Notes: a model not told the origin generated them from the letters alone. A stretch of DNA of 64,000 bases from Candidatus Pristimantibacillus sp. (GCA_048976605.1 JBHGUX010000031.1:19029-83028), one strand, 5' to 3'. Shown: positions 3,533 to 52,057, counted from the first letter of the stretch. Program-made: numbers and translations.

Positions 3533-5398
3533 TTGTTGCAACTTCAAGTAACGAACAGTCCTTTTAATCAGGAGCAAGTTGAACTTTTGAATCGTCTTCT
3601 ACCGTCGTTGACAGAGACACAGCAAATTTGGATTAGCGGATATTTATCCGCACTCAGCAGGTCAGCTTTAACAGGTGCGGAGCAGCACGCTGCTGCTACA
3701 GCAGAACTAGGAACCGTGGCTACTCTTTCTTCAGTAGTTAGTCAACCAGTCGGGTCACGTGAAGTTACCATTCTCTTTGGTTCTCAGACCGGCAACTGCC
3801 AGAGACTAGCGGGCAAATTGTCCCGTAAACTAGAAGAGCAAGGCTATCAAGTTTCACTTGCAGCAATGAATACCTTTAAGCCAAATGGCTTGAAGAAGGT
3901 TGAGAATTTGCTTATTCTGGCAAGTACTCACGGTGAAGGAGATCCACCAGACAATGCGATATCATTCCATGAGTTTATTTATAGCAAAAGAGCTCCTCAG
4001 CTTGAGAGCCTATGGTACTCCGTGCTTTCGCTGGGTGACACCTCTTATGAGTTTTTCTGTAAAACAGGTAAGGATTTCGATCAACGTCTAGAGGAGCTTG
4101 GCGGTCAACGTCTTAGCCCGCGTGTCGATTGTGATCTGGATTATGATGAGCCAGCTGCTGAATGGTTTGACAATGTTATCAGCGCCCTCAATCAGCGATT
4201 GAATGCTTCTGCAACCGCAGCTACAGTGTCTGTGAGTGCGACGGGCAGCGGGACAATGGCCGAACAATCTATATATTCCCGTACCAATCCATTCAAGGCG
4301 GAAGTACTTGCGAATATTAATCTGAACGGACGCGGCTCTGACCGTGAAACCAGACATCTAGAGTTGTCTCTTGAGGGTTCTAACCTGCAATATGAGCCAG
4401 GTGATTGCTTGGGTATTTGCCCGGAGAATCATCCTGAATTGGTGAACAGCCTAATTGAAGCGATGGGTTGGAAGGCTGACGAATTGGTACCAATTAATAA
4501 AAAGGGCGAAGAGCGTACTTTGCTTGAGGCACTCTCGCAGCATTATGAAATAACGGTACTAACGAAGCCTTTAGTGGAGCAAATCGCCCAAATAACTTCA
4601 AGTGCTAAACTTCGTGAGTTGTTGTCAACAGGTCATGAACAAGAGCTTAAGAGTTATATCGCGGGACGGGATCTGTTGGATCTTGTTCAAGAGCTTTCAC
4701 CATGGCAAATCTCAGCACGCGACTTTGTCGCTATTCTAAGAAAATTGCCTGCACGTCTGTATTCTATTGCGAGCAGCTTTAAGGCTAATCCAGATGAAGT
4801 ACATTTGACAATCAGAGCAGTTCGCTACGAGTCACATGGACGTGATCGGTACGGAGTTTGTTCGGTACAATGTGCAGAGCGATTGCAGCCAGGTGACACT
4901 TTGCCGATCTATATCCAGCATAATCCTAATTTCAAGCTTCCTGTGGTTTCGGATACGCCAGTTATTATGATTGGTCCTGGAACAGGAGTTGCTCCATTCC
5001 GAGCATTTCTGGAGGAACGTGAAGAGCTTGGTGCGGAAGGTAAAACATGGCTGTTCTACGGTGATCGTCATTTTGTAACCGACTTCCTCTATCAGACGGA
5101 TTGGCAGCGGATGCTTAAAGATGGAGCATTAACTCGTCTTGATGTCGCATTCTCTCGTGATACAGAAGAAAAGGTGTACGTACAAAACCGTTTGATTGAG
5201 AAGAGTCGTGAAATCTTCCAGTGGCTGCAAGAAGGAGCTCATGTCTATATTTGCGGAGATGAGAAGCATATGGCACATGATGTTCATGCGGCACTAATCA
5301 GCATCCTCGAAAGTGAAGGTAAAATGAGTCACGAAGAGGCAACGGCTTATCTAGCCGAAATGCAGCAACAACAGCGATATCAAAGAGATGTTTATTAA
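3533..5398 (+). CDS. cysJ: Sulfite reductase (NADPH) flavoprotein alpha subunit
   Basis: Flavodoxin FGSQTGN, RLYSIASS FAD motif, GPGTGVAPF, VYICGD, terminal RYQRDVY. Confidence 0.97.
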   Translation: MLQLQVTNSPFNQEQVELLNRLLPSLTETQQIWISGYLSALSRSALTGAEQHAAATAELGTVATLSSVVSQPVGSREVTILFGSQTGNCQRLAGKLSRKLEEQGYQVSLAAMNTFKPNGLKKVENLLILASTHGEGDPPDNAISFHEFIYSKRAPQLESLWYSVLSLGDTSYEFFCKTGKDFDQRLEELGGQRLSPRVDCDLDYDEPAAEWFDNVISALNQRLNASATAATVSVSATGSGTMAEQSIYSRTNPFKAEVLANINLNGRGSDRETRHLELSLEGSNLQYEPGDCLGICPENHPELVNSLIEAMGWKADELVPINKKGEERTLLEALSQHYEITVLTKPLVEQIAQITSSAKLRELLSTGHEQELKSYIAGRDLLDLVQELSPWQISARDFVAILRKLPARLYSIASSFKANPDEVHLTIRAVRYESHGRDRYGVCSVQCAERLQPGDTLPIYIQHNPNFKLPVVSDTPVIMIGPGTGVAPFRAFLEEREELGAEGKTWLFYGDRHFVTDFLYQTDWQRMLKDGALTRLDVAFSRDTEEKVYVQNRLIEKSREIFQWLQEGAHVYICGDEKHMAHDVHAALISILESEGKMSHEEATAYLAEMQQQQRYQRDVY

Positions 5399-5443
5399 TA
5401 TAGATGAAGTCAGACTGATTGAAAGCGAGAGGAGACTGCAATA

Positions 5444-7165
5444 ATGGCGAATGATCAAGCAGTGAAGCCTATAGGCGGACCGCCTAGCGATGTTGAGCAT
5501 ATAAAAAGCGAAAGCAATTACTTGCGTGGAGCACTAGTCGAAACGCTGAAAAATCCGGTTACCGGCGGCTTGCCAGATGACGACAACCGTTTGTTGAAGT
5601 TCCACGGGAGCTATATGCAGGATGATCGGGATTTGCGCAATGAGCGTGAACGGCAGAAGCTAGAGCCTGCTTATCAGTTCATGCTTCGCGTTGTATCGGC
5701 TGGAGGTGTTGCAACACCTGAGCAATGGTTGACGATGGATGGATTGGCACGGAAGTATGGCAATCATACGATGCGTGTTACCACTCGCCAAGCTTTTCAA
5801 ATACACGGCATTCTGAAGTGGAACTTAAAAAGCACGATTAAAGAGATTAACGACACGATGTTGACTACACTCGCGGCTTGCGGTGATGTTAACCGTAATG
5901 TCATGTGTAATCCGAATCCCTATCAATCTGAAATTCATGGTGAAGCTTATGAGTGGGCTAGACGTGTAAGTGATCATCTAGCGCCAAGGACAGCTGCGTA
6001 TCATGAAATATGGCTGGATGGCGAAAAGGTTGTAGATGGCCTGGAAGGTCAAGAGGTTGAACCGATTTACGGTCCTGTCTACTTGCCGCGTAAGTTCAAA
6101 ATCGGGATGGCAGTTCCACCGTCCAATGATGTAGATGTCTATTCTCAGGATCTAGGTTTCATTGCTATCGTTGAGAACGATAAGCTTGTAGGATTTAATA
6201 TTACAGTAGGCGGCGGAATGGGTATGACCCATGGTGATACGGCTACTTACCCTCAACTAGGACGGGTAATCGGTTTCTGTACACCAGAGAAAATCATCGA
6301 TGTGGCAGAGAAGACCGTAACTATCCAACGTGATTATGGCAATCGTTCTGTTCGTAAAAACGCTCGATTCAAATATACGATTGACCGTCATGGCATTGAA
6401 TGGTTCATTAGTGAACTTCATGAGCGATTGGGCTGGGAGCTTGAGACAGCACGCTCGTATCATTTTGATCATAATGGCGATCGTTATGGTTGGGTGAAGG
6501 GCAGTAATGGCAAATGGAATTATACATTGTTCATTCAGAGTGGAAGAATTCATGATGATGGCGACTATCAGCTGATGACTGGGTTGCGAGAAATTGCGAA
6601 GATTCACACGGGTGACTTCAGACTATCGCCGAACCAGAATCTTGTCATTGCCAATGTGACTACCCAGAAGAAGCGTAAAATAGTGGATATGATTGAGCAA
6701 TATGGACTTTCTGATGGCGCTCATCATTCTGCATTGCGCAGAAGCTCGATGTCTTGCGTGGCGTTACCGACTTGTGGTCTGGCTATGGCGGAAGCAGAGC
6801 GTTACATGCCGACTCTGTTAGATAAACTGGAACTGATAATGGATGAAGCTGGATTGCGCAATGATTCCATCGTTATTCGCATGACTGGCTGTCCTAATGG
6901 CTGTGCGCGTCCAGCTTTGGGTGAGATCTCGTTCATTGGTAAATCACCAGGCAAATACAATATGTACATGGGCGCAAGCTTTGTAGGTGATCGTCTGAAT
7001 AAGATCTATAAAGAAAGTATTGATGAGAAAGAAATCTTGGAGACGCTGGAGCCTATTCTTCACAGATATGCAAAAGAGCGGGAGAAAGACGAGCATTTCG
7101 GAGATTTTGTTATCCGTACAGGTTATGTTAAAGCGACGACTTCAGGACTTAATTTCCATGATTAG
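5444..7165 (+). CDS. cysI: Sulfite reductase hemoprotein beta subunit
   Basis: [17 protein letters not shown] and [10 protein letters not shown] siroheme/4Fe-4S motifs; directly after cysJ. Confidence 0.97.
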
Positions 7166-7179
7166 TCACATATAATAGA

Positions 7180-7209
7180 AGGGGATCAGAGCACATGCTC
7201 TGGTCCCCT
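7180..7209. terminator. Bidirectional terminator between cysI and the VOC gene
   Basis: AGGGGATCAGAGC / GCTCTGGTCCCCT hairpin between convergent genes. Confidence 0.75.
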
Positions 7210-7235
7210 TATTTATTCCTATAGTAGAGAATGAA

Positions 7236-7652
7236 TTAATTACTTTCGTAATTAAATTGCCATTCAATCCCGAATTTATCCCTTACACTGCCGTATAATT
7301 TACTCCAAAACGTTTCTTGAAGCTCCATAATTACGGTGCCGCCATCACTAAGCTTGTTATAGTAGCCTTTAATTTTTTCTAAATCTTTATTGACGATAGC
7401 TAGGCTGATATTATTCCCTTGATTAAAGGGCATTCCAGGAAACACATCAGAAAACATGACATTGCTTCCATCGATGTTAAGGCGAGTGTGCATGACTAGA
7501 TCCTTCGCTTCTTCTGGCAGAGGATAGTTGGGGTCAGAAGGTGTTTCTCCAAAAGTCATAATTTCTGGTTTGTCTGTCTCGAACACTTGAGCATAGAACT
7601 CAACTGCTTCACGAGTGTTACCATTAAAATTAAGATAAACATCAACAGCCAT
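7236..7652 (-). CDS. VOC/glyoxalase (PhnB-like) family protein
   Basis: YLNFNGNTREAVEFY...FWSKLYGSVRDKFGIEWQ; AAGGAG RBS favours ATG at 7652. Confidence 0.9.
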   Translation of the reverse strand: MAVDVYLNFNGNTREAVEFYAQVFETDKPEIMTFGETPSDPNYPLPEEAKDLVMHTRLNIDGSNVMFSDVFPGMPFNQGNNISLAIVNKDLEKIKGYYNKLSDGGTVIMELQETFWSKLYGSVRDKFGIEWQFNYESN

Positions 7653-7793
7653 TTGCGCCACTCCTTAGATTAACTAGGTAGTCATTCATTAATGAATGAC
7701 TAGAATATTGTACCATTTACTGCATTAGAATCAAATTCACTAAAGTCGCATTTTTGACCGTTGATTCTAGCTGCTTGTCCTCATAAATAATTA

Positions 7794-7829
7794 AATACAA
7801 CAATCCGACAAATGTCGGATTGTTGTATT
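7794..7829. terminator. 17-bp-stem hairpin, probable terminator of the DUF2935 gene
   Basis: AATACAACAATCCGACA-AA-TGTCGGATTGTTGTATT. Confidence 0.7.
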
Positions 7830-7853
7830 TTGCTATTGAATAAGTAGTCGTCC

Positions 7854-8654
7854 TTATGAAGACTTCACGTTTAATAAACTTTCCTCGAACATATCAATGA
7901 TGAATAAGAATCTCTCAGCCTCACGGAAGACATGATCTGCAAGTAAAGGGTGGATGATGCTTTTTATACGACAAGATTCAATTAGATCCTTCGCTGTTTT
8001 TTTGAAATCACGAAGAGATGCCACAGATACTCGATTTTGATCTAAAAATTGATCAAGAAGCGGAACGGTCTGGGATTGGGGACGCATGGAATCCAAGTCT
8101 TGAGCTTGGAACAAAAGCTGATCAAAGTCTTGACTGAAATTTCGAGCTTGATCTACTAATTGTCTTTCAGACGGGTCGAGTAGATGTCCAATGAATTTGG
8201 CGTGATCTGCCATAATGCGTAAGAAAAACACATTTTCGTTGATAATTGCATCAGGTAATGGGTCTAATCTTCCGCTATTAAGTTCCTCCAATCGATTTCT
8301 AAAATAATTGGCTTCCCTGCTAGTATGGTCGATTAATAAGGGGAAATTATTAGCCCCTGGCATCTGGCAGGTTAATACCAAACCTAATACTTTTCTTTTG
8401 AATGCCCAAATATAAGAAGCTGCACTGTGAACCTCTACATTAAAACGTCTAATCTGTTCAGGGTCTGTTCCGGTTGTAAACGTATGAGACTTTCTTTCAA
8501 TCTCATCAAATAAGGAATAAAATTGATTCGCTTCATTGATTAATTGTGTATCATCACATCTAAAGCCTAATTTAAGAAACAGCGAATGTTCCTTCATAAT
8601 GCGTGACCAAAAACGGATTTCATCTAACGAGCGGGTTACGAATGCATTCGACAG
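7854..8654 (-). CDS. DUF2935 family protein, probably initiating at a CTG codon (8654)
   Basis: Repeated FW/FF-x-RIMxxHxxF motifs; the frame extends 19 codons upstream of the track ATG (LSNAFVTRSLDEIRFWSRI), with a GGGGGTG RBS 8 nt before the CTG. Confidence 0.85.
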   Translation of the reverse strand: MSNAFVTRSLDEIRFWSRIMKEHSLFLKLGFRCDDTQLINEANQFYSLFDEIERKSHTFTTGTDPEQIRRFNVEVHSAASYIWAFKRKVLGLVLTCQMPGANNFPLLIDHTSREANYFRNRLEELNSGRLDPLPDAIINENVFFLRIMADHAKFIGHLLDPSERQLVDQARNFSQDFDQLLFQAQDLDSMRPQSQTVPLLDQFLDQNRVSVASLRDFKKTAKDLIESCRIKSIIHPLLADHVFREAERFLFIIDMFEESLLNVKSS

Positions 8655-8848
8655 TTTATTGTCACCCCCACAACTTGTAGTAAACAGTAATGAATATTCA
8701 GTTTCAGTAACAGGTATGCAAGGAAAATGGTGTTACTAGTCCAAATTCCATGTCGGTCATTGTCGTGATCATAGATATGGTCTATCATTGTAGGGGAGTC
8801 AGACAAACAATGTTGTTTGAATACTGATATGGTGTATGAGGGATATGA

Positions 8849-9340
8849 GTGGGGGGAGATACTTTGAGCAACCGAAGTGTTTCGAAATTGTTCGTAATTA
8901 TGATGGTTATTTGTGTATTGGTAGGATGTGCTAGCAAAGAGAAGCATGAAACAGTAGAAGTGTATTCGGTTGAATCGTTATCAGACTCTACTGATAGTGA
9001 AGGTATGTACACACCAATAGGGCATAAGCTTGTTAACGCGATCACTATTATAGAGGAATCTAAGAATGGTAAGAAGTGGGAGTTATTTGTTGTAGAGGAT
9101 CATTATGATCTTGACGGAGATTTTATGGAAAGTTCTATCGAATATGGACAAGGAAGTAAGGATTTTGTTACTGAACATATGACTTCTGATGGAGACAAGA
9201 TGAATAGTGATAAACCTCTAACCATATTAACCACTGAATTAATCGATAAGGACTTTAAAGCAAGAGATCTATCTGATTTAGAAAAGGAACAAGTTAAGAA
9301 GCATATCCTCAATTTAGTTGCCACTATTGAGAAAAAATAA
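8849..9340 (+). CDS. Hypothetical lipoprotein
   Basis: Hydrophobic stretch ending in lipobox-like LVGC; 163-aa ORF. Confidence 0.65.
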   Translation: MGGDTLSNRSVSKLFVIMMVICVLVGCASKEKHETVEVYSVESLSDSTDSEGMYTPIGHKLVNAITIIEESKNGKKWELFVVEDHYDLDGDFMESSIEYGQGSKDFVTEHMTSDGDKMNSDKPLTILTTELIDKDFKARDLSDLEKEQVKKHILNLVATIEKK

Positions 9341-9398
9341 TTAGAAGAGACGTTAATAAGTTAGCGTCTCTTCAGTGATTCCTCGTTCATGAAATCAG

Positions 9399-9593
9399 TT
9401 AATCCTCCCAAAACAAATCATTCAACGTTTTCGATAATGCTCTGCAAATTGCAACACAAAGACTTAGGCTGGGATTATATTTCCCTAATTCAATTAATCC
9501 AATTGTTTGTCTAGACACTCCGACAAGTTGAGCCAGCTCCTCTTGGGATAAGTCTTTCTCAACCCGGGCTAGTTTTAATCTTATATTTTTCAT
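9399..9593 (-). CDS. XRE/Cro-C1 HTH transcriptional regulator
   Basis: LSQEELAQLVGVSRQTIGLIELGKYNPSLSL. Confidence 0.93.
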   Translation of the reverse strand: MKNIRLKLARVEKDLSQEELAQLVGVSRQTIGLIELGKYNPSLSLCVAICRALSKTLNDLFWED

Positions 9594-9621
9594 TTACAAC
9601 CACCTTACTTAATACTGTCTC

Positions 9622-10131
9622 TTATTCAACTAGATCATCATCAGCAGCTTTTTTACTGATCTGATTTGCAAAATAATGTGTAGATGTCAAAACGATAAGC
9701 AAAAATGGAATATAAATGATCATTGAAACGAAGAAGACAACAATGAAATACTTCACGGATTGCATGTCGTTGTCTGCATAGACAATAGAGCTTCTTATGC
9801 CGAAAAATAAGGCAATCACAATACCGAGAGCTAAACCCCAAATCATATTTTTAGTACTAAATGGAATTTTACTTTTTCGATCATGAACCTCAACTTCGTC
9901 AGAATATAGCCCAAGCATAACGGATCTAATTCCGAAATAAAGTGAAGAAGCTAGCAATATGACAAGTTCTGTGGCGATCATATTTATGTTTTGCCCATAA
10001 TAGATATATTTCACAATTACCGAAACACTACATAATAAGCTTACGATTACATAGGTTTCTTTATAAATCTTATTGCGAGTATTTACAATCCTTTCGTCAA
10101 CTATTTTGTTCTTGAATGGCCACCATTTCAT
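9622..10131 (-). CDS. DUF6773-like membrane protein, usually paired with a small XRE regulator
   Basis: N-terminal IVDERI motif, four TM segments, co-oriented with the XRE gene. Confidence 0.75.
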   Translation of the reverse strand: MKWWPFKNKIVDERIVNTRNKIYKETYVIVSLLCSVSVIVKYIYYGQNINMIATELVILLASSLYFGIRSVMLGLYSDEVEVHDRKSKIPFSTKNMIWGLALGIVIALFFGIRSSIVYADNDMQSVKYFIVVFFVSMIIYIPFLLIVLTSTHYFANQISKKAADDDLVE

Positions 10132-48249: not shown

Positions 48250-48454
48250 AGCTCTTTCTGTCACTCTCCTCTCATTATCTATTATAGACGCACTAGAGTC
48301 ATAGAGGTTGCTGAAAAATAGATTTGCCATGTGCAAATATTACCAATCGATATAAATAACCGGATGGATAAAAAAAGTGGAAAACAATAACAATAAGACA
48401 AAGTGAATGTGTGTAGGTATGCACATTGAAGATAAAGGATTAGGGAGGTGGGAC

Positions 48455-49147
48455 ATGGAACGGCTCCAGAAGAAGGAATGGCTCGATGAGGAAGATGTCG
48501 AGTTAGCCGAGTTGGAACATAGCTTGGGTGAAGTATGGAACGTCAATCGTTATTTAGGCGGTAACCCGGCGTTATTCTCACACTTGAACAAGCTGGTAAG
48601 AAGAATGGGAGCAGTAGACTGCATAAAAGTTCTCGACGTAGCAACCGGTCTTGCTGACATTCCGCTCGCATTGCTTAGTTGGTGCGAGAAGAGAGGCATT
48701 AAAGTGACAATTGTGGGTGTTGATACTCATTCGAAAATAGTTGAGTTAGCGATGAAAAATACATCGAATCATTCAGCGATACAAGTGTTGAAGGCTGATG
48801 GGACACAGTTGCCATTCGATAACAATAGCTTTGATATTGTGTTCAGCAATCTTGCTCTGCATCACATGGATGAAGATGCTGCTGTGAAGCTAGTGTCCGA
48901 GATGGACCGGGTGTCTCGTGCTGGCTGGGTAATCACGGATCTGGAACGGCATAAATATGCTTATTTGGCTGCTAAGCTGCTAGCCAAATTCGTATGGCGA
49001 AGTCCTGTAACCAAGCATGATGGCCCGCTTTCTGTTCAACGTTCATTCACTGCGAGTGAAGCTCGGAGCTTAGTGGAGCGGGCAGGGGTACAAGCTTCGG
49101 TGCATCGACATTTCCCATTTCGGCTCGCATTAGTGCGCTATGTATGA
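48455..49147 (+). CDS. SAM-dependent methyltransferase of the type found beside type III PKS genes
   Basis: VLDVATGLAD SAM motif, VFSNLALHH, ITDLERH, HDGPLSVQRSFT; GGAGGT RBS before ATG 48455. Confidence 0.9.
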   Translation: MERLQKKEWLDEEDVELAELEHSLGEVWNVNRYLGGNPALFSHLNKLVRRMGAVDCIKVLDVATGLADIPLALLSWCEKRGIKVTIVGVDTHSKIVELAMKNTSNHSAIQVLKADGTQLPFDNNSFDIVFSNLALHHMDEDAAVKLVSEMDRVSRAGWVITDLERHKYAYLAAKLLAKFVWRSPVTKHDGPLSVQRSFTASEARSLVERAGVQASVHRHFPFRLALVRYV

Positions 49148-50321
49148 TGTCATCGTGGTCGGTGCTGGACCTGCTGGCAGCGTATTAGCTCGATTATTGG
49201 CACTGCAAGGTGTTAAGGTGCTGATGCTAGACGCTGCACACTTTCCGCGGCGCAAGCCTTGCGGAGAATCTTTGAACCCGGGAGCTGTAGCTGCGCTTCA
49301 ACGAGTGATGGGTAGGGAAAGTGCAGCAGCTCTCACAAATATGCTGCGGATACCATTCAGTGTAGTGAACGGTTGGCAATTGAACAGCCAAGGAATTGAA
49401 ATATCCGCTTCTTTTCCAGTAGGTAGTTATGGAATCGGCTGCAGCAGAGAGCTGTTCGATTATTGGCTAGTCGAAGAAGCATGCCGAGCGGGAGCACAGT
49501 TTGAACAGGAAACTAGGGTTCAGCAGTTGTTATGGGATGCGGGACGTGTCATAGGTGTGCAAGTGAGAACCTCGAGCAATAAAACGCATGATTTGCATGC
49601 TGCATTCGTTGCAGGCGCTGATGGCATTCGTTCGGCAGTCGCCAGAAGCGCGGGAATTAGCCGCTTTGGCCCGCTTCGGAAAGCGGCATTAACGGCAAGG
49701 CTAAACGGAGTTGCAGAGCTAAGCGATAAGGTCGAACTATTTATGCGAGCCGATGGCGTAGTTGGTCTTGCGCCAATCGGGGATGGGATGGCGAATATGA
49801 CAGTAGCGCTTCAAGGGACAAGCATTGCCGCGTCTGCTTCTAAAGGCAAAGCAGCTTTCATGATGGAGGCAGCACAAGAAATACCGCTTCTTGCAGAGCG
49901 TATGAAGCATGTCGAGCTGCAAGGCGAGGTGCTGGCATGCGGTCCATTTGAACGTCAGGTTCGTACATGTGTGATCAACGGGATGATTCTCGTTGGCGAT
50001 GCGGCAGGTTACTATGATCCATTAACGGGACAAGGGATCTACCGTGCGATTAGAAGCGCTGAGCTTGCTGCACCAACGCTTTTGCAAGCTTTGCAGACAG
50101 GCAGCGAGCAGCCGCTCAGTCGTTATAATCGCGAATGTGAGCAACAGTTCGCTGGTGGTACAAGACTGCAGCGAGTGATCGAGCATATCAGCAGGAATCG
50201 GATAGTCTGGAGTGCCGCGCTCCATGTGATCGGTTCGTCTTCCTTGTTGAAGAACAAATTAGTTCAGGCAGTCGGAGATTGCCCGAAAGGAGGCAAGTCA
50301 TGTATACCTTCAACGAAATAG
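49140..50321 (+). CDS. FAD-dependent oxidoreductase (geranylgeranyl reductase / aromatic hydroxylase family)
   Basis: YDVIVVGAGPAGS, RRKPCGE, VAGADG, LVGDAAGYYDPLTGQGI. Confidence 0.92.
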   Translation: MYDVIVVGAGPAGSVLARLLALQGVKVLMLDAAHFPRRKPCGESLNPGAVAALQRVMGRESAAALTNMLRIPFSVVNGWQLNSQGIEISASFPVGSYGIGCSRELFDYWLVEEACRAGAQFEQETRVQQLLWDAGRVIGVQVRTSSNKTHDLHAAFVAGADGIRSAVARSAGISRFGPLRKAALTARLNGVAELSDKVELFMRADGVVGLAPIGDGMANMTVALQGTSIAASASKGKAAFMMEAAQEIPLLAERMKHVELQGEVLACGPFERQVRTCVINGMILVGDAAGYYDPLTGQGIYRAIRSAELAAPTLLQALQTGSEQPLSRYNRECEQQFAGGTRLQRVIEHISRNRIVWSAALHVIGSSSLLKNKLVQAVGDCPKGGKSCIPSTK

Positions 50322-50770
50322 CGATGAAATGTACACCTGAGACAGCTTTTCGTTATGCGAGACAGGTTGAGCATTGGCCGGAGCTGCTGCCGCATTATCG
50401 TTCAACCGTTTTTCACCGAGGTGGAAGTGAAAGGGGTGGGCTGGTTGAAATGGCGGCGATCAGATCCTTCAAACCATACAATTGGCCTGTATGGTGGGTT
50501 AGTGAAATGGAAGTTAGACAGGATGAGATGATTGTCGCCTATAAGCATATCCGTGGTGTGACAAAAGGAATGGAAGTCGAATGGCGGCTTGCAAGTGAAG
50601 GAGAGTCCGTCATCGTATCCATCACGCATCAATGGGACCGTCCACCAATAGGAAGGAAACTTGCGTCTAACTTAATTGGTGAAATGTTTGTTCATGTCAT
50701 TGCGGATCAAACACTGCAGGGATTGAAGCTGCAAGCAGAACAAGAAGGTGAGGTGAGCTTATATGGCTGA
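50300..50770 (+). CDS. SRPBCC/START-fold polyketide cyclase/aromatase-like protein
   Basis: ARQVEHWPELLPHY, WWVSEM, HIRGVTKGMEVEW; GGAGG RBS before ATG 50300. Confidence 0.88.
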   Translation: MYTFNEIAMKCTPETAFRYARQVEHWPELLPHYRSTVFHRGGSERGGLVEMAAIRSFKPYNWPVWWVSEMEVRQDEMIVAYKHIRGVTKGMEVEWRLASEGESVIVSITHQWDRPPIGRKLASNLIGEMFVHVIADQTLQGLKLQAEQEGEVSLYG

Positions 50771-51995
50771 GATTCGAGTGGTTATTACCGGAATAGGCTG
50801 TGTAACACCAATAGGAACAGGTGTCGAAGCATTATGGAATGGCGTTCAGAGAGGGGAGAGCGCGGTTAAACATATGGATCGTTTCGTGCCAGAAGGATTA
50901 AGGAGCCGAATATCTGCGCAAATTCCTAACTTCGAAGCAGAGGATTATATGAATAAGAAGCGGGCGCATCGAATGGATCGCTTCTCTCAGTTGGCAGTAG
51001 CAGCAGGGATGCTTGCATTGCAGGATGCTAGGTTGAACTCAACCGATATGGATTCGGAACGATCAGGTATATTTATGGGCAGCGCATTGGGCGGAATTGC
51101 CTTTGCCGAAGAGCAGTGTGGTTTATATTACAATGGCGGCTTTCGATCGGTATCGCCAACACTTGGCTTCTCAGTATTCGGCGGCGCGGCATCCTGTAAT
51201 CTGGCGATGGAATTCGGCTTTACTGGTCCGAACGAGACAAACTCGATGTCCTGTGCGTCAGGTTCTGTAGCGATTGGAAGAGCGATGCAAGCGATTAAAC
51301 GCGGAGAGGCAGATGTCATTCTGGCTGGTGGATCAGAAGCGCCATTAGCACCATTGTCCTTCGGCGCTTTCGATATGCTGAGGGCGATGTCTACGCGAAA
51401 TGAACGACCAGATACGGCAAGCCGGCCTTTCGACCGTAATCGAGATGGTTTTGTTATGGGCGAAGGCTCTGCGATTCTTGTCCTTGAAGCTGAGCATCAC
51501 GCCAAAGCTCGTGGGGCAACCATATACGGTGAAGTGGCAGGCTTTGGTCTGACTAATGACGCACATCACATGAGTGCGCCTTTGCCTTGTGGAACGCAAG
51601 CAGCTCGTGCTTTAAGACAAGCATTGACCAGTGCGGATATGTCACCGGATGATGTTAATTACGTGAATGCCCATGGATCATCAACCTTGCTGAATGATGT
51701 AACCGAATCGAAGGTCATCCGTACCGTATTTGGAAATCGTCCAGTTGCGGTCAGCGGGACGAAGGGTTTATACGGCCATCCACTAGGAGCGTCTGGTGCA
51801 ATAGAGGCCGCCATAACACTATTGTCGATCCGCAACCGTTGGCTGCCGCCAACGACAAATTTAGAAGAGCCGGATCCTGCTGCAGAGATCGACCTCGTTG
51901 CCCGCCAAGCTCGCCAAGTAAAAGCTGAGGCGGCGGTCTCGAATTCATATGGTTTCGGGGGCGTCAATTCCGTTCTTGCTTTTCGCCGTGCGTAA
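50763..51995 (+). CDS. FabF-like beta-ketoacyl synthase with intact Cys-His-His triad
   Basis: SMSCASG, SRPFDRNRDGFVMGEG, YVNAHGSST, GLYGHPLGASG, SNSYGFGG. Confidence 0.93.
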   Translation: MAEIRVVITGIGCVTPIGTGVEALWNGVQRGESAVKHMDRFVPEGLRSRISAQIPNFEAEDYMNKKRAHRMDRFSQLAVAAGMLALQDARLNSTDMDSERSGIFMGSALGGIAFAEEQCGLYYNGGFRSVSPTLGFSVFGGAASCNLAMEFGFTGPNETNSMSCASGSVAIGRAMQAIKRGEADVILAGGSEAPLAPLSFGAFDMLRAMSTRNERPDTASRPFDRNRDGFVMGEGSAILVLEAEHHAKARGATIYGEVAGFGLTNDAHHMSAPLPCGTQAARALRQALTSADMSPDDVNYVNAHGSSTLLNDVTESKVIRTVFGNRPVAVSGTKGLYGHPLGASGAIEAAITLLSIRNRWLPPTTNLEEPDPAAEIDLVARQARQVKAEAAVSNSYGFGGVNSVLAFRRA

Positions 51996-52005
51996 TCCAT
52001 ACAAC

Positions 52006-52040
52006 AACGGGATCACCCTAATAGAAGGGTGATCCCGTTT
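52006..52040. terminator. Bidirectional terminator ending the KS operon
   Basis: AACGGGATCACCCT / AGGGTGATCCCGTT. Confidence 0.85.
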
Positions 52041-52057
52041 CATTTGAATCAATATAC

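Follow-up and report, generated by a model that had tools for sequence, protein, structure and literature searches.

A conserved four-gene operon, in which a FabF-derived ketosynthase (KS) and an SRPBCC protein resembling aromatase/cyclases are found in place of a type III polyketide synthase (PKS), occupies positions 48455 to 51995 of the 64-kb window (the whole stretch of DNA analysed, 64,000 nucleotides from Candidatus Pristimantibacillus sp.). The four genes form one unit, and behind related methyltransferase and FAD oxidoreductase genes the KS and SRPBCC genes exchange with type III PKS genes. By analogy with alkylresorcinol operons, we put at about even the chance that the KS and cyclase would build an alkyl-phenolic ring on the housekeeping acyl carrier protein (ACP), which would then be hydroxylated and methylated. 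The features of the locus are:

48366..48397, + strand: upstream element GGATAAAAAAAGTGGAAAACAATAACAATAAG, 32 nt, conserved; candidate promoter or operator of the cassette
48455..49147, + strand: methyltransferase (MT) gene, 230 aa; SAM-dependent, HidA/PRK06202-like family
49140..50321, + strand: FAD-dependent oxidoreductase gene, 393 aa; HidB/Fdo-like, geranylgeranyl-reductase-like superfamily; proposed ring hydroxylase
50300..50770, + strand: SRPBCC gene, 156 aa; resembles mono-domain type II PKS aromatase/cyclases
50763..51995, + strand: ketosynthase (KS) gene, 410 aa; FabF-derived beta-ketoacyl synthase, distinct cassette clade
52006..52046, + strand: intrinsic terminator closing the operon; 14-bp stem, then UCAUUUG

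All four open reading frames are intact and lie on the + strand. A preliminary description had given junction overlaps of 8, 22 and 8 nt and a single terminator; the coordinates confirm the overlaps, and one strong hairpin (52006-52039, 14 bp, −26.2 kcal/mol, z = −7.5 against shuffled sequences) with a U-rich tail is located 3′ of the KS stop codon. The Pfam assignments (MT, Methyltransf_11/25; SRPBCC, Polyketide_cyc2/Polyketide_cyc; KS, ketoacyl-synt N and C domains, PF00109/PF02801) establish the order of transcription as MT-FAD-SRPBCC-KS, the reverse of the ketosynthase-cyclase-oxidoreductase-methyltransferase order in the title of that description. The MT gene starts with the ATG at 48455, preceded by the ribosome binding site AGGGAGGTG; the ATG assigned to the SRPBCC gene at 50300 agrees with the invariant N-terminus of the family. 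Seven Paenibacillus cassettes share the 32-nt upstream element with little or no change, although the sequence on either side diverges, and the 6.49-Mb genome has a single copy of it, also when up to 6 mismatches are tolerated. A search of Rfam for a riboswitch or leader gave no match to the element. The element bears only a loose sigma-H-like resemblance.

We examined 83 related loci. The SRPBCC and KS genes adjoin in every one that is not cut by a contig end, and the MT and FAD genes are present in 76 and 75, respectively; in three Longimicrobiaceae loci neither was found alongside the SRPBCC-KS pair. The SRPBCC gene is present in 135 of 201 Gemmatimonadota species genomes and in 20 of 151 from Paenibacillaceae, and the same gene order is observed in a Symbiobacteriaceae MAG and in metagenome contigs. 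Predicted MT-SRPBCC and FAD-SRPBCC fusion proteins exist. Long open frames around the SRPBCC gene in high-GC genomes also suggested SRPBCC-KS fusions; the two genes lie in different frames in all three loci checked and are therefore not fused. In most Gemmatimonadota a flavin reductase gene adjoins the FAD enzyme gene, and in many a DUF92 gene, of a polyprenyl-phosphate-kinase-like family, lies upstream. Within the genus the four genes are present or absent as a block at one fixed site between the GH18 and DUF2653 genes, which abut in two genomes (G047 and G122) and are separated by the cassette in three. The cassette has a GC content of 50.2% in a genome of 44.0%, and ranks among the highest 1.1% of 3.5-kb windows. 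Conservation of the gene order, raised as a point to check in the preliminary description, is thus observed both across phyla and as a block indel within one genus.

Operons ordered methyltransferase-oxidoreductase-type III PKS yield alkylresorcinols and hierridins (PMC6836626, PMC10896814). HidA methylates 5-pentadecylresorcinol, an alkylresorcinol (PMC6836626), and the Gimesia maris methyltransferase (Mtr) belongs to a characterised alkylresorcinol operon of this order (PMC10896814). By far the best NCBIfam match of the cassette MT is NF004851, at 157 bits over the full length and below the 243-bit equivalog cut-off. The same model is the best match for MTs whose genes adjoin those for type III PKS in Geomonas and metagenome contig L121 (42% and 36% identity to the cassette enzyme), and it is the only one matched by the G. 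maris Mtr fragments (from the supplement of PMC10896814). BioC-like and quinone methyltransferase assignments were considered for the MT and rejected, all scores being far below cut-offs. In the MT tree, cassette and type III PKS neighbourhoods are intermixed. Two Gemmatimonadota genomes that lack the cassette carry an MT-FAD-type III PKS arrangement, and genomes of that phylum with type III PKS tend not to have the cassette (odds ratio 0.22, p = 0.02, without correction for phylogeny). The MT-FAD pair has other partners as well: a metallo-beta-lactamase-fold gene (L120) and, where SRPBCC is missing, an unrelated KS (L122); thus the pair alone does not fix the scaffold.

The FAD enzyme matches FAD_binding_3 (110 bits) and, below the cut-off, GG-red-SF (144 bits), and contains the motifs GAGPAG, FPRRKPCGESL, GADG and GDAAG. 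GDAAG is the reductase-type form of the last motif, classic hydroxylases having GDAAH, and counts against a hydroxylase role. The nearest PDB sequences are an archaeal geranylgeranyl reductase (GGR, 3oz2), the halogenase CndH (3e1t) and PgaE. With CndH and CmlS among the best PDB matches and a flavin reductase neighbour in Gemmatimonadota, a halogenase was considered; this was rejected because the WxWxIP motif is absent by inspection, GVVGLAPI standing in its place. Comparison with the G. maris Mtr and oxidoreductase (Fdo) was confined to fragments, the supplement DNA text containing recognition errors and frameshifts; the recognition errors make full-length identities incomputable. In readable Fdo fragments the identity to the cassette enzyme is 39% over 94 aa, 42% over 31 aa and 60% over 30 aa, and FPRxKxCG and GDAAGY are common to both. 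Even for HidB a hydroxylase role is no more than proposed, and the role of the G. maris oxidoreductase is left open by its paper (PMC10896814). The earlier view that MT and FAD enzyme resemble those flanking type III PKS genes is supported by the NF004851 match, the 36-42% identical homologues and the Fdo fragments.

The best PDB matches of the SRPBCC family profile are WhiE-ORFVI (E = 5e-8) and TcmN (E = 1.7e-7), and the AF2 model (pLDDT 89.5) has ZhuI as its best fold match (TM 0.83). Both the profile search and the fold thus place the protein closest to aromatase/cyclases, in agreement with its earlier designation as a cyclase. COQ10 and RatA as closest relatives were not borne out, RatA-like 1t17 having an E value of only 0.035 against 5e-8 for the aromatase/cyclases. 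The COQ10 and RatA names given to the SRPBCC protein are automatic annotations of the source databases. The family has 32 residues that are invariant across phyla, and equivalents of TcmN W28, Y35, W63, W65, S67 and W95 are retained. Tyr-35 and Arg-69 are the catalytic pair of TcmN, in which Arg-69 is essential. Arg-69 aligns with the invariant Met-70 of the SRPBCC family (position set by the R69A mutant entry 2res), thus the TcmN catalytic mechanism cannot simply be transferred. Other invariant polar residues (H32, R34, R55, H83 and H110) might stand in for the arginine.

The KS scores 491.0 bits against TIGR03150 (fabF), for which the cut-off is 493.75, and 257 bits against PRK07103, a polyketide KS model; among PDB sequences, FabF gives 381 bits and the actinorhodin KS 244 bits. 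It retains Cys-164, His-304, His-339, Lys-334 and the GFGG Phe-398, and so is indeed the FabF-like enzyme with intact Cys-His-His residues that had been described. Identity to cassette KS proteins of other phyla is 52-59%, compared with 39-41% to the two FabF paralogues of the same genome. In a tree drawn without reference KS-alpha, CLF, FabB and DarB sequences, the cassette KS proteins form their own clade (100/100 support), sister to housekeeping FabF. The clade is marked by 13 active-site-proximal signature changes, with the signatures GSALGG, SCASG, HGSST and GTKGxYGH. The KS is FabF-derived yet sits in a separate, fully supported clade.

A tblastn search with the AcpP of the genome gave no match in the 64-kb window (E ≤ 10) and none in 88 related loci (1.1 Mb, E ≤ 1), a search that a very divergent ACP could escape. 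The sole free-standing ACP of the genome is encoded by acpP, which adjoins fabF on a separate contig (C67). No second KS or CLF-like gene was observed beside the cassette KS in any locus examined, and one KS per locus was counted in 77 loci. The AcpP searches and the locus comparison thus uphold the claim that ACP and chain-length factor are missing. No match to PF02797 (type III PKS) was found across the whole genome.

We propose that the cassette, a four-gene operon of the hidABC/alkylresorcinol type, was acquired by horizontal transfer, and that in it the FabF-derived KS and the mono-domain aromatase/cyclase-like SRPBCC protein would replace the type III PKS. The chemistry that we infer would begin with the KS, probably a homodimer, accepting a fatty acyl chain that the housekeeping AcpP delivers and adding malonyl-ACP units several times without reduction. 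The SRPBCC protein would then hold the poly-beta-keto end and close a resorcinol-type ring. By analogy with HidB and HidA, the flavoenzyme may hydroxylate this ring and the MT may methylate it, giving a methoxylated alkylphenol, alkylhydroquinone or alkylbenzoquinone lipid. The product might act in the spore or membrane; in Paenibacillus it could be an alternative membrane or respiratory lipid. The GDAAG motif, the methionine in place of TcmN Arg-69, the other partners of the MT-FAD pair and the three Longimicrobiaceae loci count against this reading, as do two further points. We know of no precedent for an iterative FabF-type homodimer that works with neither chain-length factor nor dedicated ACP, and FabG would have access to poly-beta-keto intermediates carried by AcpP.

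The product need not be aromatic. The KS is FabF-like at 491 bits (TIGR03150) and FabF enzymes normally carry out single elongation steps; it might therefore perform one or two condensations on acyl-ACP, with the SRPBCC protein acting as a dehydratase, thioesterase or binding protein. The MT and flavoenzyme would then tailor an alkylpyrone, a beta-keto-derived ketone or a methyl-branched or otherwise modified fatty acid, which resembles the pairing of a methyltransferase with a flavin reductase in the synthesis of 10-methyl fatty acids. The absence of TcmN Arg-69, the reductase-like flavoenzyme (GGR-type family and PDB matches, GDAAG) and the other partners of the MT-FAD pair are consistent with such a route. 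We nevertheless regard it as rather unlikely: methylation of an alkylresorcinol has been demonstrated for this MT family (HidA, PMC6836626), whose members repeatedly adjoin type III PKS genes, and the cassette pair and type III PKS share an operon position and tend toward mutual exclusion. The SRPBCC protein moreover keeps most of the TcmN/WhiE aromatic pocket residues, and its matches to lipid-binding START proteins are far weaker than those to aromatase/cyclases.

Weak matches to the UbiE/MenG, MenJ, UbiH and GG-reductase families, the automatic COQ10/RatA annotations and the DUF92 gene upstream in many Gemmatimonadota would fit a module that tailors menaquinone or another prenyl lipid. It would consist of a UbiE-like C-methyltransferase, a MenJ/GGR-like side-chain reductase or UbiH-like hydroxylase and a COQ10-like quinone-binding START protein, the KS being accessory or unrelated. 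This appears improbable, as the matches lie far below cut-offs (46 bits against 158 for the UbiE subfamily, 72 against 700 for MenJ; RatA-like 1t17 reaches only E = 0.035), the KS is the tightest-linked partner of SRPBCC in all loci, and the transferred unit contains no prenyltransferase. Intact catalytic residues and strong FabF similarity would also suit a redundant FabF paralogue that serves normal fatty-acid elongation among functionally unrelated neighbours. We disfavour this and give it very little weight: the genome already has fabF beside acpP and a second paralogue, and the cassette KS, in its separate clade with its active-site-proximal changes, is always coupled to SRPBCC across phyla and is transferred in a single block with its three partner genes.

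If ring formation by the KS and cyclase is correct, a minimal pair of proteins on the fatty-acid ACP can stand in for a type III PKS, and a new PKS architecture without chain-length factor or dedicated ACP would be at hand. Surveys of type III PKS would then greatly underestimate how common phenolic or quinone lipids are, most Gemmatimonadota being one example. More tentatively, and with somewhat less than even confidence, we suggest that mono-alkyl phenolic lipids and polyketide quinones may be made by a third route, which dispenses with type III PKS, uses an iterating FabF-derived homodimer on the housekeeping ACP with a mono-domain aromatase/cyclase, and has spread horizontally into spore-forming Paenibacillus. 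To our knowledge, current genome-mining rules would not detect a KS and SRPBCC route, and no published description of such a cassette was found in the literature searched, the coverage of which is incomplete. The locus is especially useful because the cassette occurs in culturable Paenibacillus, with several type strains among the relatives, most other carriers being uncultured MAGs. With natural cassette-bearing and empty-site relatives in one genus, the hypothesis is directly testable by lipidomics and genetics.

The preliminary description likened the operon to DarAB. The comparison with DarAB(C) holds as a loose analogy, in that a discrete KS and a separate ring-forming enzyme give a resorcinol lipid without type III PKS; homology was not found, none of the four proteins having a DarA- or DarB-named NCBIfam model among the matches listed. 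DarB is a FabH-type (KAS III) enzyme, DarA is not an SRPBCC protein and Dar clusters usually carry their own ACP, whereas the cassette KS is of the KAS I/II class (PF00109/PF02801) and KAS II-type. Housekeeping FabF (KAS II) shares fold, Cys-His-His triad, lysine and GFGG loop with the cassette KS at around 40% identity; the latter differs in its separate clade, its location outside the fab cluster, its signature substitutions and its accessory-gene distribution. Type II PKS systems (TcmN, WhiE-ORFVI, ZhuI) likewise combine a discrete KS with a helix-grip ARO/CYC-like protein and include the closest sequence and fold relatives of the SRPBCC protein. The cassette differs from them in having no chain-length factor or dedicated ACP, in a KS that groups with FabF and not KS-alpha, and in the replacement of Arg-69 by methionine.

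The logic of synthase, methyltransferase and hydroxylase or oxidoreductase is shared with srsABC of Streptomyces griseus and pkqABC of Mycobacterium smegmatis and Streptomyces sp. MNU77 (PMC9927152), which use a type III PKS and another gene order. These alkylresorcinol/polyketide-quinone operons yield methylated alkyl-benzoquinone lipids, and their physiological roles depend on conditions, being seen in spores and in hypoxia (PMC9927152). The hierridin operon of picocyanobacteria, hidABC (PMC6836626), and the planctomycete mtr-fdo-t3pks operon (PMC10896814) have the same first two genes as the cassette, in the same order and of the same families (NF004851-like MT, GGR-like FAD oxidoreductase). 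All are compact, ACP-less operons with the scaffold gene or genes last and a long-chain fatty acyl thioester as presumed substrate; where hidABC and its planctomycete counterpart have a type III PKS (HidC), the cassette has the SRPBCC protein and a FabF-type KS.

The four genes form a conserved mobile unit, which opens with the two genes known from alkylresorcinol operons and closes with genes for a distinct FabF-derived ketosynthase (KS) and an aromatase/cyclase-like protein, at the place usually taken by a type III PKS. Pfam assignments give the transcription order:

48455-49147, + strand, class I SAM methyltransferase
49140-50321, + strand, flavoenzyme (FAD_binding_3)
50300-50770, + strand, SRPBCC/Polyketide_cyc protein
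50763-51995, + strand, two-domain beta-ketoacyl synthase (KS)

The junction overlaps of 8, 22 and 8 nt and the intact KS active site of the preliminary description were both borne out, the latter by Cys164, His304 and His339 together with Lys334 and the GFGG Phe. A strong ribosome-binding site precedes the methyltransferase start (48455), and the SRPBCC start (50300) agrees with the invariant N-terminus of its family. The terminator 3′ of the KS stop codon consists of a hairpin of 14 bp (−26.2 kcal/mol, z = −7.5) followed by a stretch rich in U. About 58 nt 5′ of the methyltransferase start lies a candidate 32-nt element (48366-48397), found once in this genome and invariant or nearly so in seven Paenibacillus cassettes. 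It probably serves as a promoter or operator specific to the cassette; any likeness to a sigma-H promoter is loose. A search for ACP-like sequences in the 64-kb window and around 88 related loci found none. The sole free-standing ACP of the genome is acpP, beside fabF on another contig.

Members of the SRPBCC family, which keeps 32 invariant positions across phyla, occur in Paenibacillus, one Symbiobacteriaceae MAG, hundreds of Gemmatimonadota and metagenome contigs. Of 201 Gemmatimonadota species genomes 135 carry the gene, as do 20 of 151 Paenibacillaceae, with 6 of the 14 genomes of the window's genus among these 20. Conservation of gene order holds most strictly for the last two genes: across 83 loci the KS comes after the SRPBCC gene whenever the contig extends far enough, with a methyltransferase in 76 and a flavoenzyme in 75 of the 83. 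Two layouts are seen, that of the window and, in most Gemmatimonadaceae, flavoenzyme-flavin reductase-methyltransferase-SRPBCC-KS; three Longimicrobiaceae loci have SRPBCC-KS alone within the fetched flanks. Predicted methyltransferase-SRPBCC (403-408 aa) and flavoenzyme-SRPBCC (520 aa) fusions among public proteins (P0219, P0355, P0342) link both tailoring enzymes with the SRPBCC protein.

We note several variants among the related loci. A wider neighbourhood is conserved in locus L017 (3217-10557) and other Gemmatimonadaceae, comprising peptidase M24, an ECF sigma/anti-sigma pair, DUF92, the cassette with flavin reductase and a MIP channel. Locus L099 (5719-11693) reads aminotransferase class III, methyltransferase, flavoenzyme, SRPBCC, a 327-aa protein without Pfam match, and the earliest-branching member of the cassette KS clade. 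A spore-forming Bacillota genome (L100, 7001-7741) has a solitary methyltransferase that shares 45% identity with the window's and groups in the tree with that of the Symbiobacteriaceae cassette; none of the other three cassette genes lies near it, and it may be what is left of a lost cassette.

Among genomes of the genus the block is either wholly present or wholly absent between GH18 and DUF2653. The four genes sit exactly between these neighbours in the window's genome and two others; in two genomes the site is empty and the neighbours adjoin, about 100-150 bp apart. At 50.2% GC (genome, 44.0%) the cassette ranks in the top 1.1% of 3.5-kb windows, and in the KS tree the cassette KS of Bacillota fall within Gemmatimonadota sequences; both fit horizontal acquisition. 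The gap (window 48337-52057; loci L149-L153) is a variable slot. In the window it holds the cassette alone. Two genomes have the cassette there together with a gene for a fused isobutyryl-CoA mutase (IcmF-like, 1077 aa), which follows shortly after the KS on the same strand, and one genome has a gerA-type germinant receptor operon. IcmF is absent from the window's genome.

The KS is FabF-like, scoring 491 bits against TIGR03150, just below the cut-off; FabF is nearest among PDB sequences (381 bits; actinorhodin KS, 244 bits). Phylogeny places the cassette KS as FabF-derived yet in a separate clade (100/100 support), sister to the housekeeping FabF of Paenibacillus, Gemmatimonadota and Geomonas. 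Cassette KS of different phyla share 52-59% identity, and 39-41% with this genome's two FabF paralogues. Thirteen substitutions set the clade apart; they are concentrated in motifs that surround the active site, with GSGIGG changed to GSALGG, ACA to SCA, HGTST to HGSST and STKSMTGH to GTKGxYGH. That such an enzyme is a spare FabF seems barely credible.

The best solved relatives of the SRPBCC profile are the aromatase/cyclases WhiE-ORFVI, TcmN and BexL (5e-8 to 8e-6; a RatA-like protein gives 0.035), and the protein's confident AF2 model (pLDDT 89.5) matches the fold of ZhuI best (TM 0.83). Equivalents of TcmN W28, Y35, W63, W65, S67 and W95 are kept in the family. At the position of Arg69, which was placed via the R69A mutant entry, the family has Met without exception. 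By these comparisons the protein appears cyclase-like, not a textbook TcmN.

In the mechanism we propose, the KS would be loaded from AcpP with a fatty acyl chain, which it would extend by malonyl units without reduction. The poly-beta-keto end would be folded and cyclised by the SRPBCC protein to a resorcinol-type ring, which the flavoenzyme would hydroxylate and the methyltransferase methylate. We rate this chemistry at even chances. The missing Arg69 equivalent casts doubt on it, as does the occurrence of the methyltransferase-flavoenzyme pair with other partners at other loci. To our knowledge an iterative FabF homodimer working on a housekeeping ACP has no precedent, and the flavoenzyme carries motifs of reductase type; both count against the mechanism. 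A non-aromatic product (pyrone, ketone or modified fatty acid) is a rather unlikely alternative, and a role as quinone or isoprenoid tailoring module is more doubtful still.

We found no description of the KS/SRPBCC pairing in the literature covered, which was incomplete; this does not amount to proof. The window offers a Bacillota host open to culture, presence or absence of the block at a fixed site inside one genus, a conserved cassette-specific upstream element, and evidence from fusion proteins.

The published methyltransferase-oxidoreductase-type III PKS operon, named hidABC in picocyanobacteria and mtr-fdo-t3pks in 58 planctomycetes, yields alkylresorcinols and, once these are methylated and hydroxylated, hierridins; HidA was shown in vitro to methylate 5-pentadecylresorcinol (PMC6836626, PMC10896814). 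Other operons of related type, likewise with a type III PKS, make polyketide quinones in mycobacteria and in spores of Streptomyces (PMC9927152). The likeness of the methyltransferase and flavoenzyme to genes flanking type III PKS, first seen in the sequence, stands. The standout NCBIfam match of the window methyltransferase is NF004851 (157 bits, full length), the sole model matched by the readable fragments of Gimesia maris Mtr, and the flavoenzyme is 39-60% identical to the G. maris Fdo fragments. In Geomonas anaerohicana and in a metagenome contig, a type III PKS shares its operon with a methyltransferase resembling the window's (42% and 36% identity, respectively); in both, the place of the flavoenzyme is taken by a peptidase-U32-family protein, and a codirectional B12-radical-SAM gene lies upstream.

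We observed the order B12-radical-SAM, HidA-like methyltransferase, peptidase-U32-family protein, type III PKS at L098 (Geomonas, 5553-10019) and L121 (a related contig, 3613-9052). This could be a phenolic-lipid operon with an oxygen-independent hydroxylase, UbiU/UbiV being the analogy we assume for the U32 protein. Elsewhere the methyltransferase-flavoenzyme pair follows an unrelated FabF-like KS (38% identity) without SRPBCC (L122, 4724-7949), or precedes a metallo-beta-lactamase-fold gene without any KS (L120, 6001-8728).

Type III PKS is missing from the window's genome, and two Gemmatimonadota genomes have methyltransferase-flavoenzyme-type III PKS without the cassette. In this phylum cassette and type III PKS tend toward mutual exclusion (4/12 versus 131/189; odds ratio 0.22, p = 0.02, uncorrected for phylogeny), and in the methyltransferase tree cassette and type III PKS neighbourhoods are interleaved.
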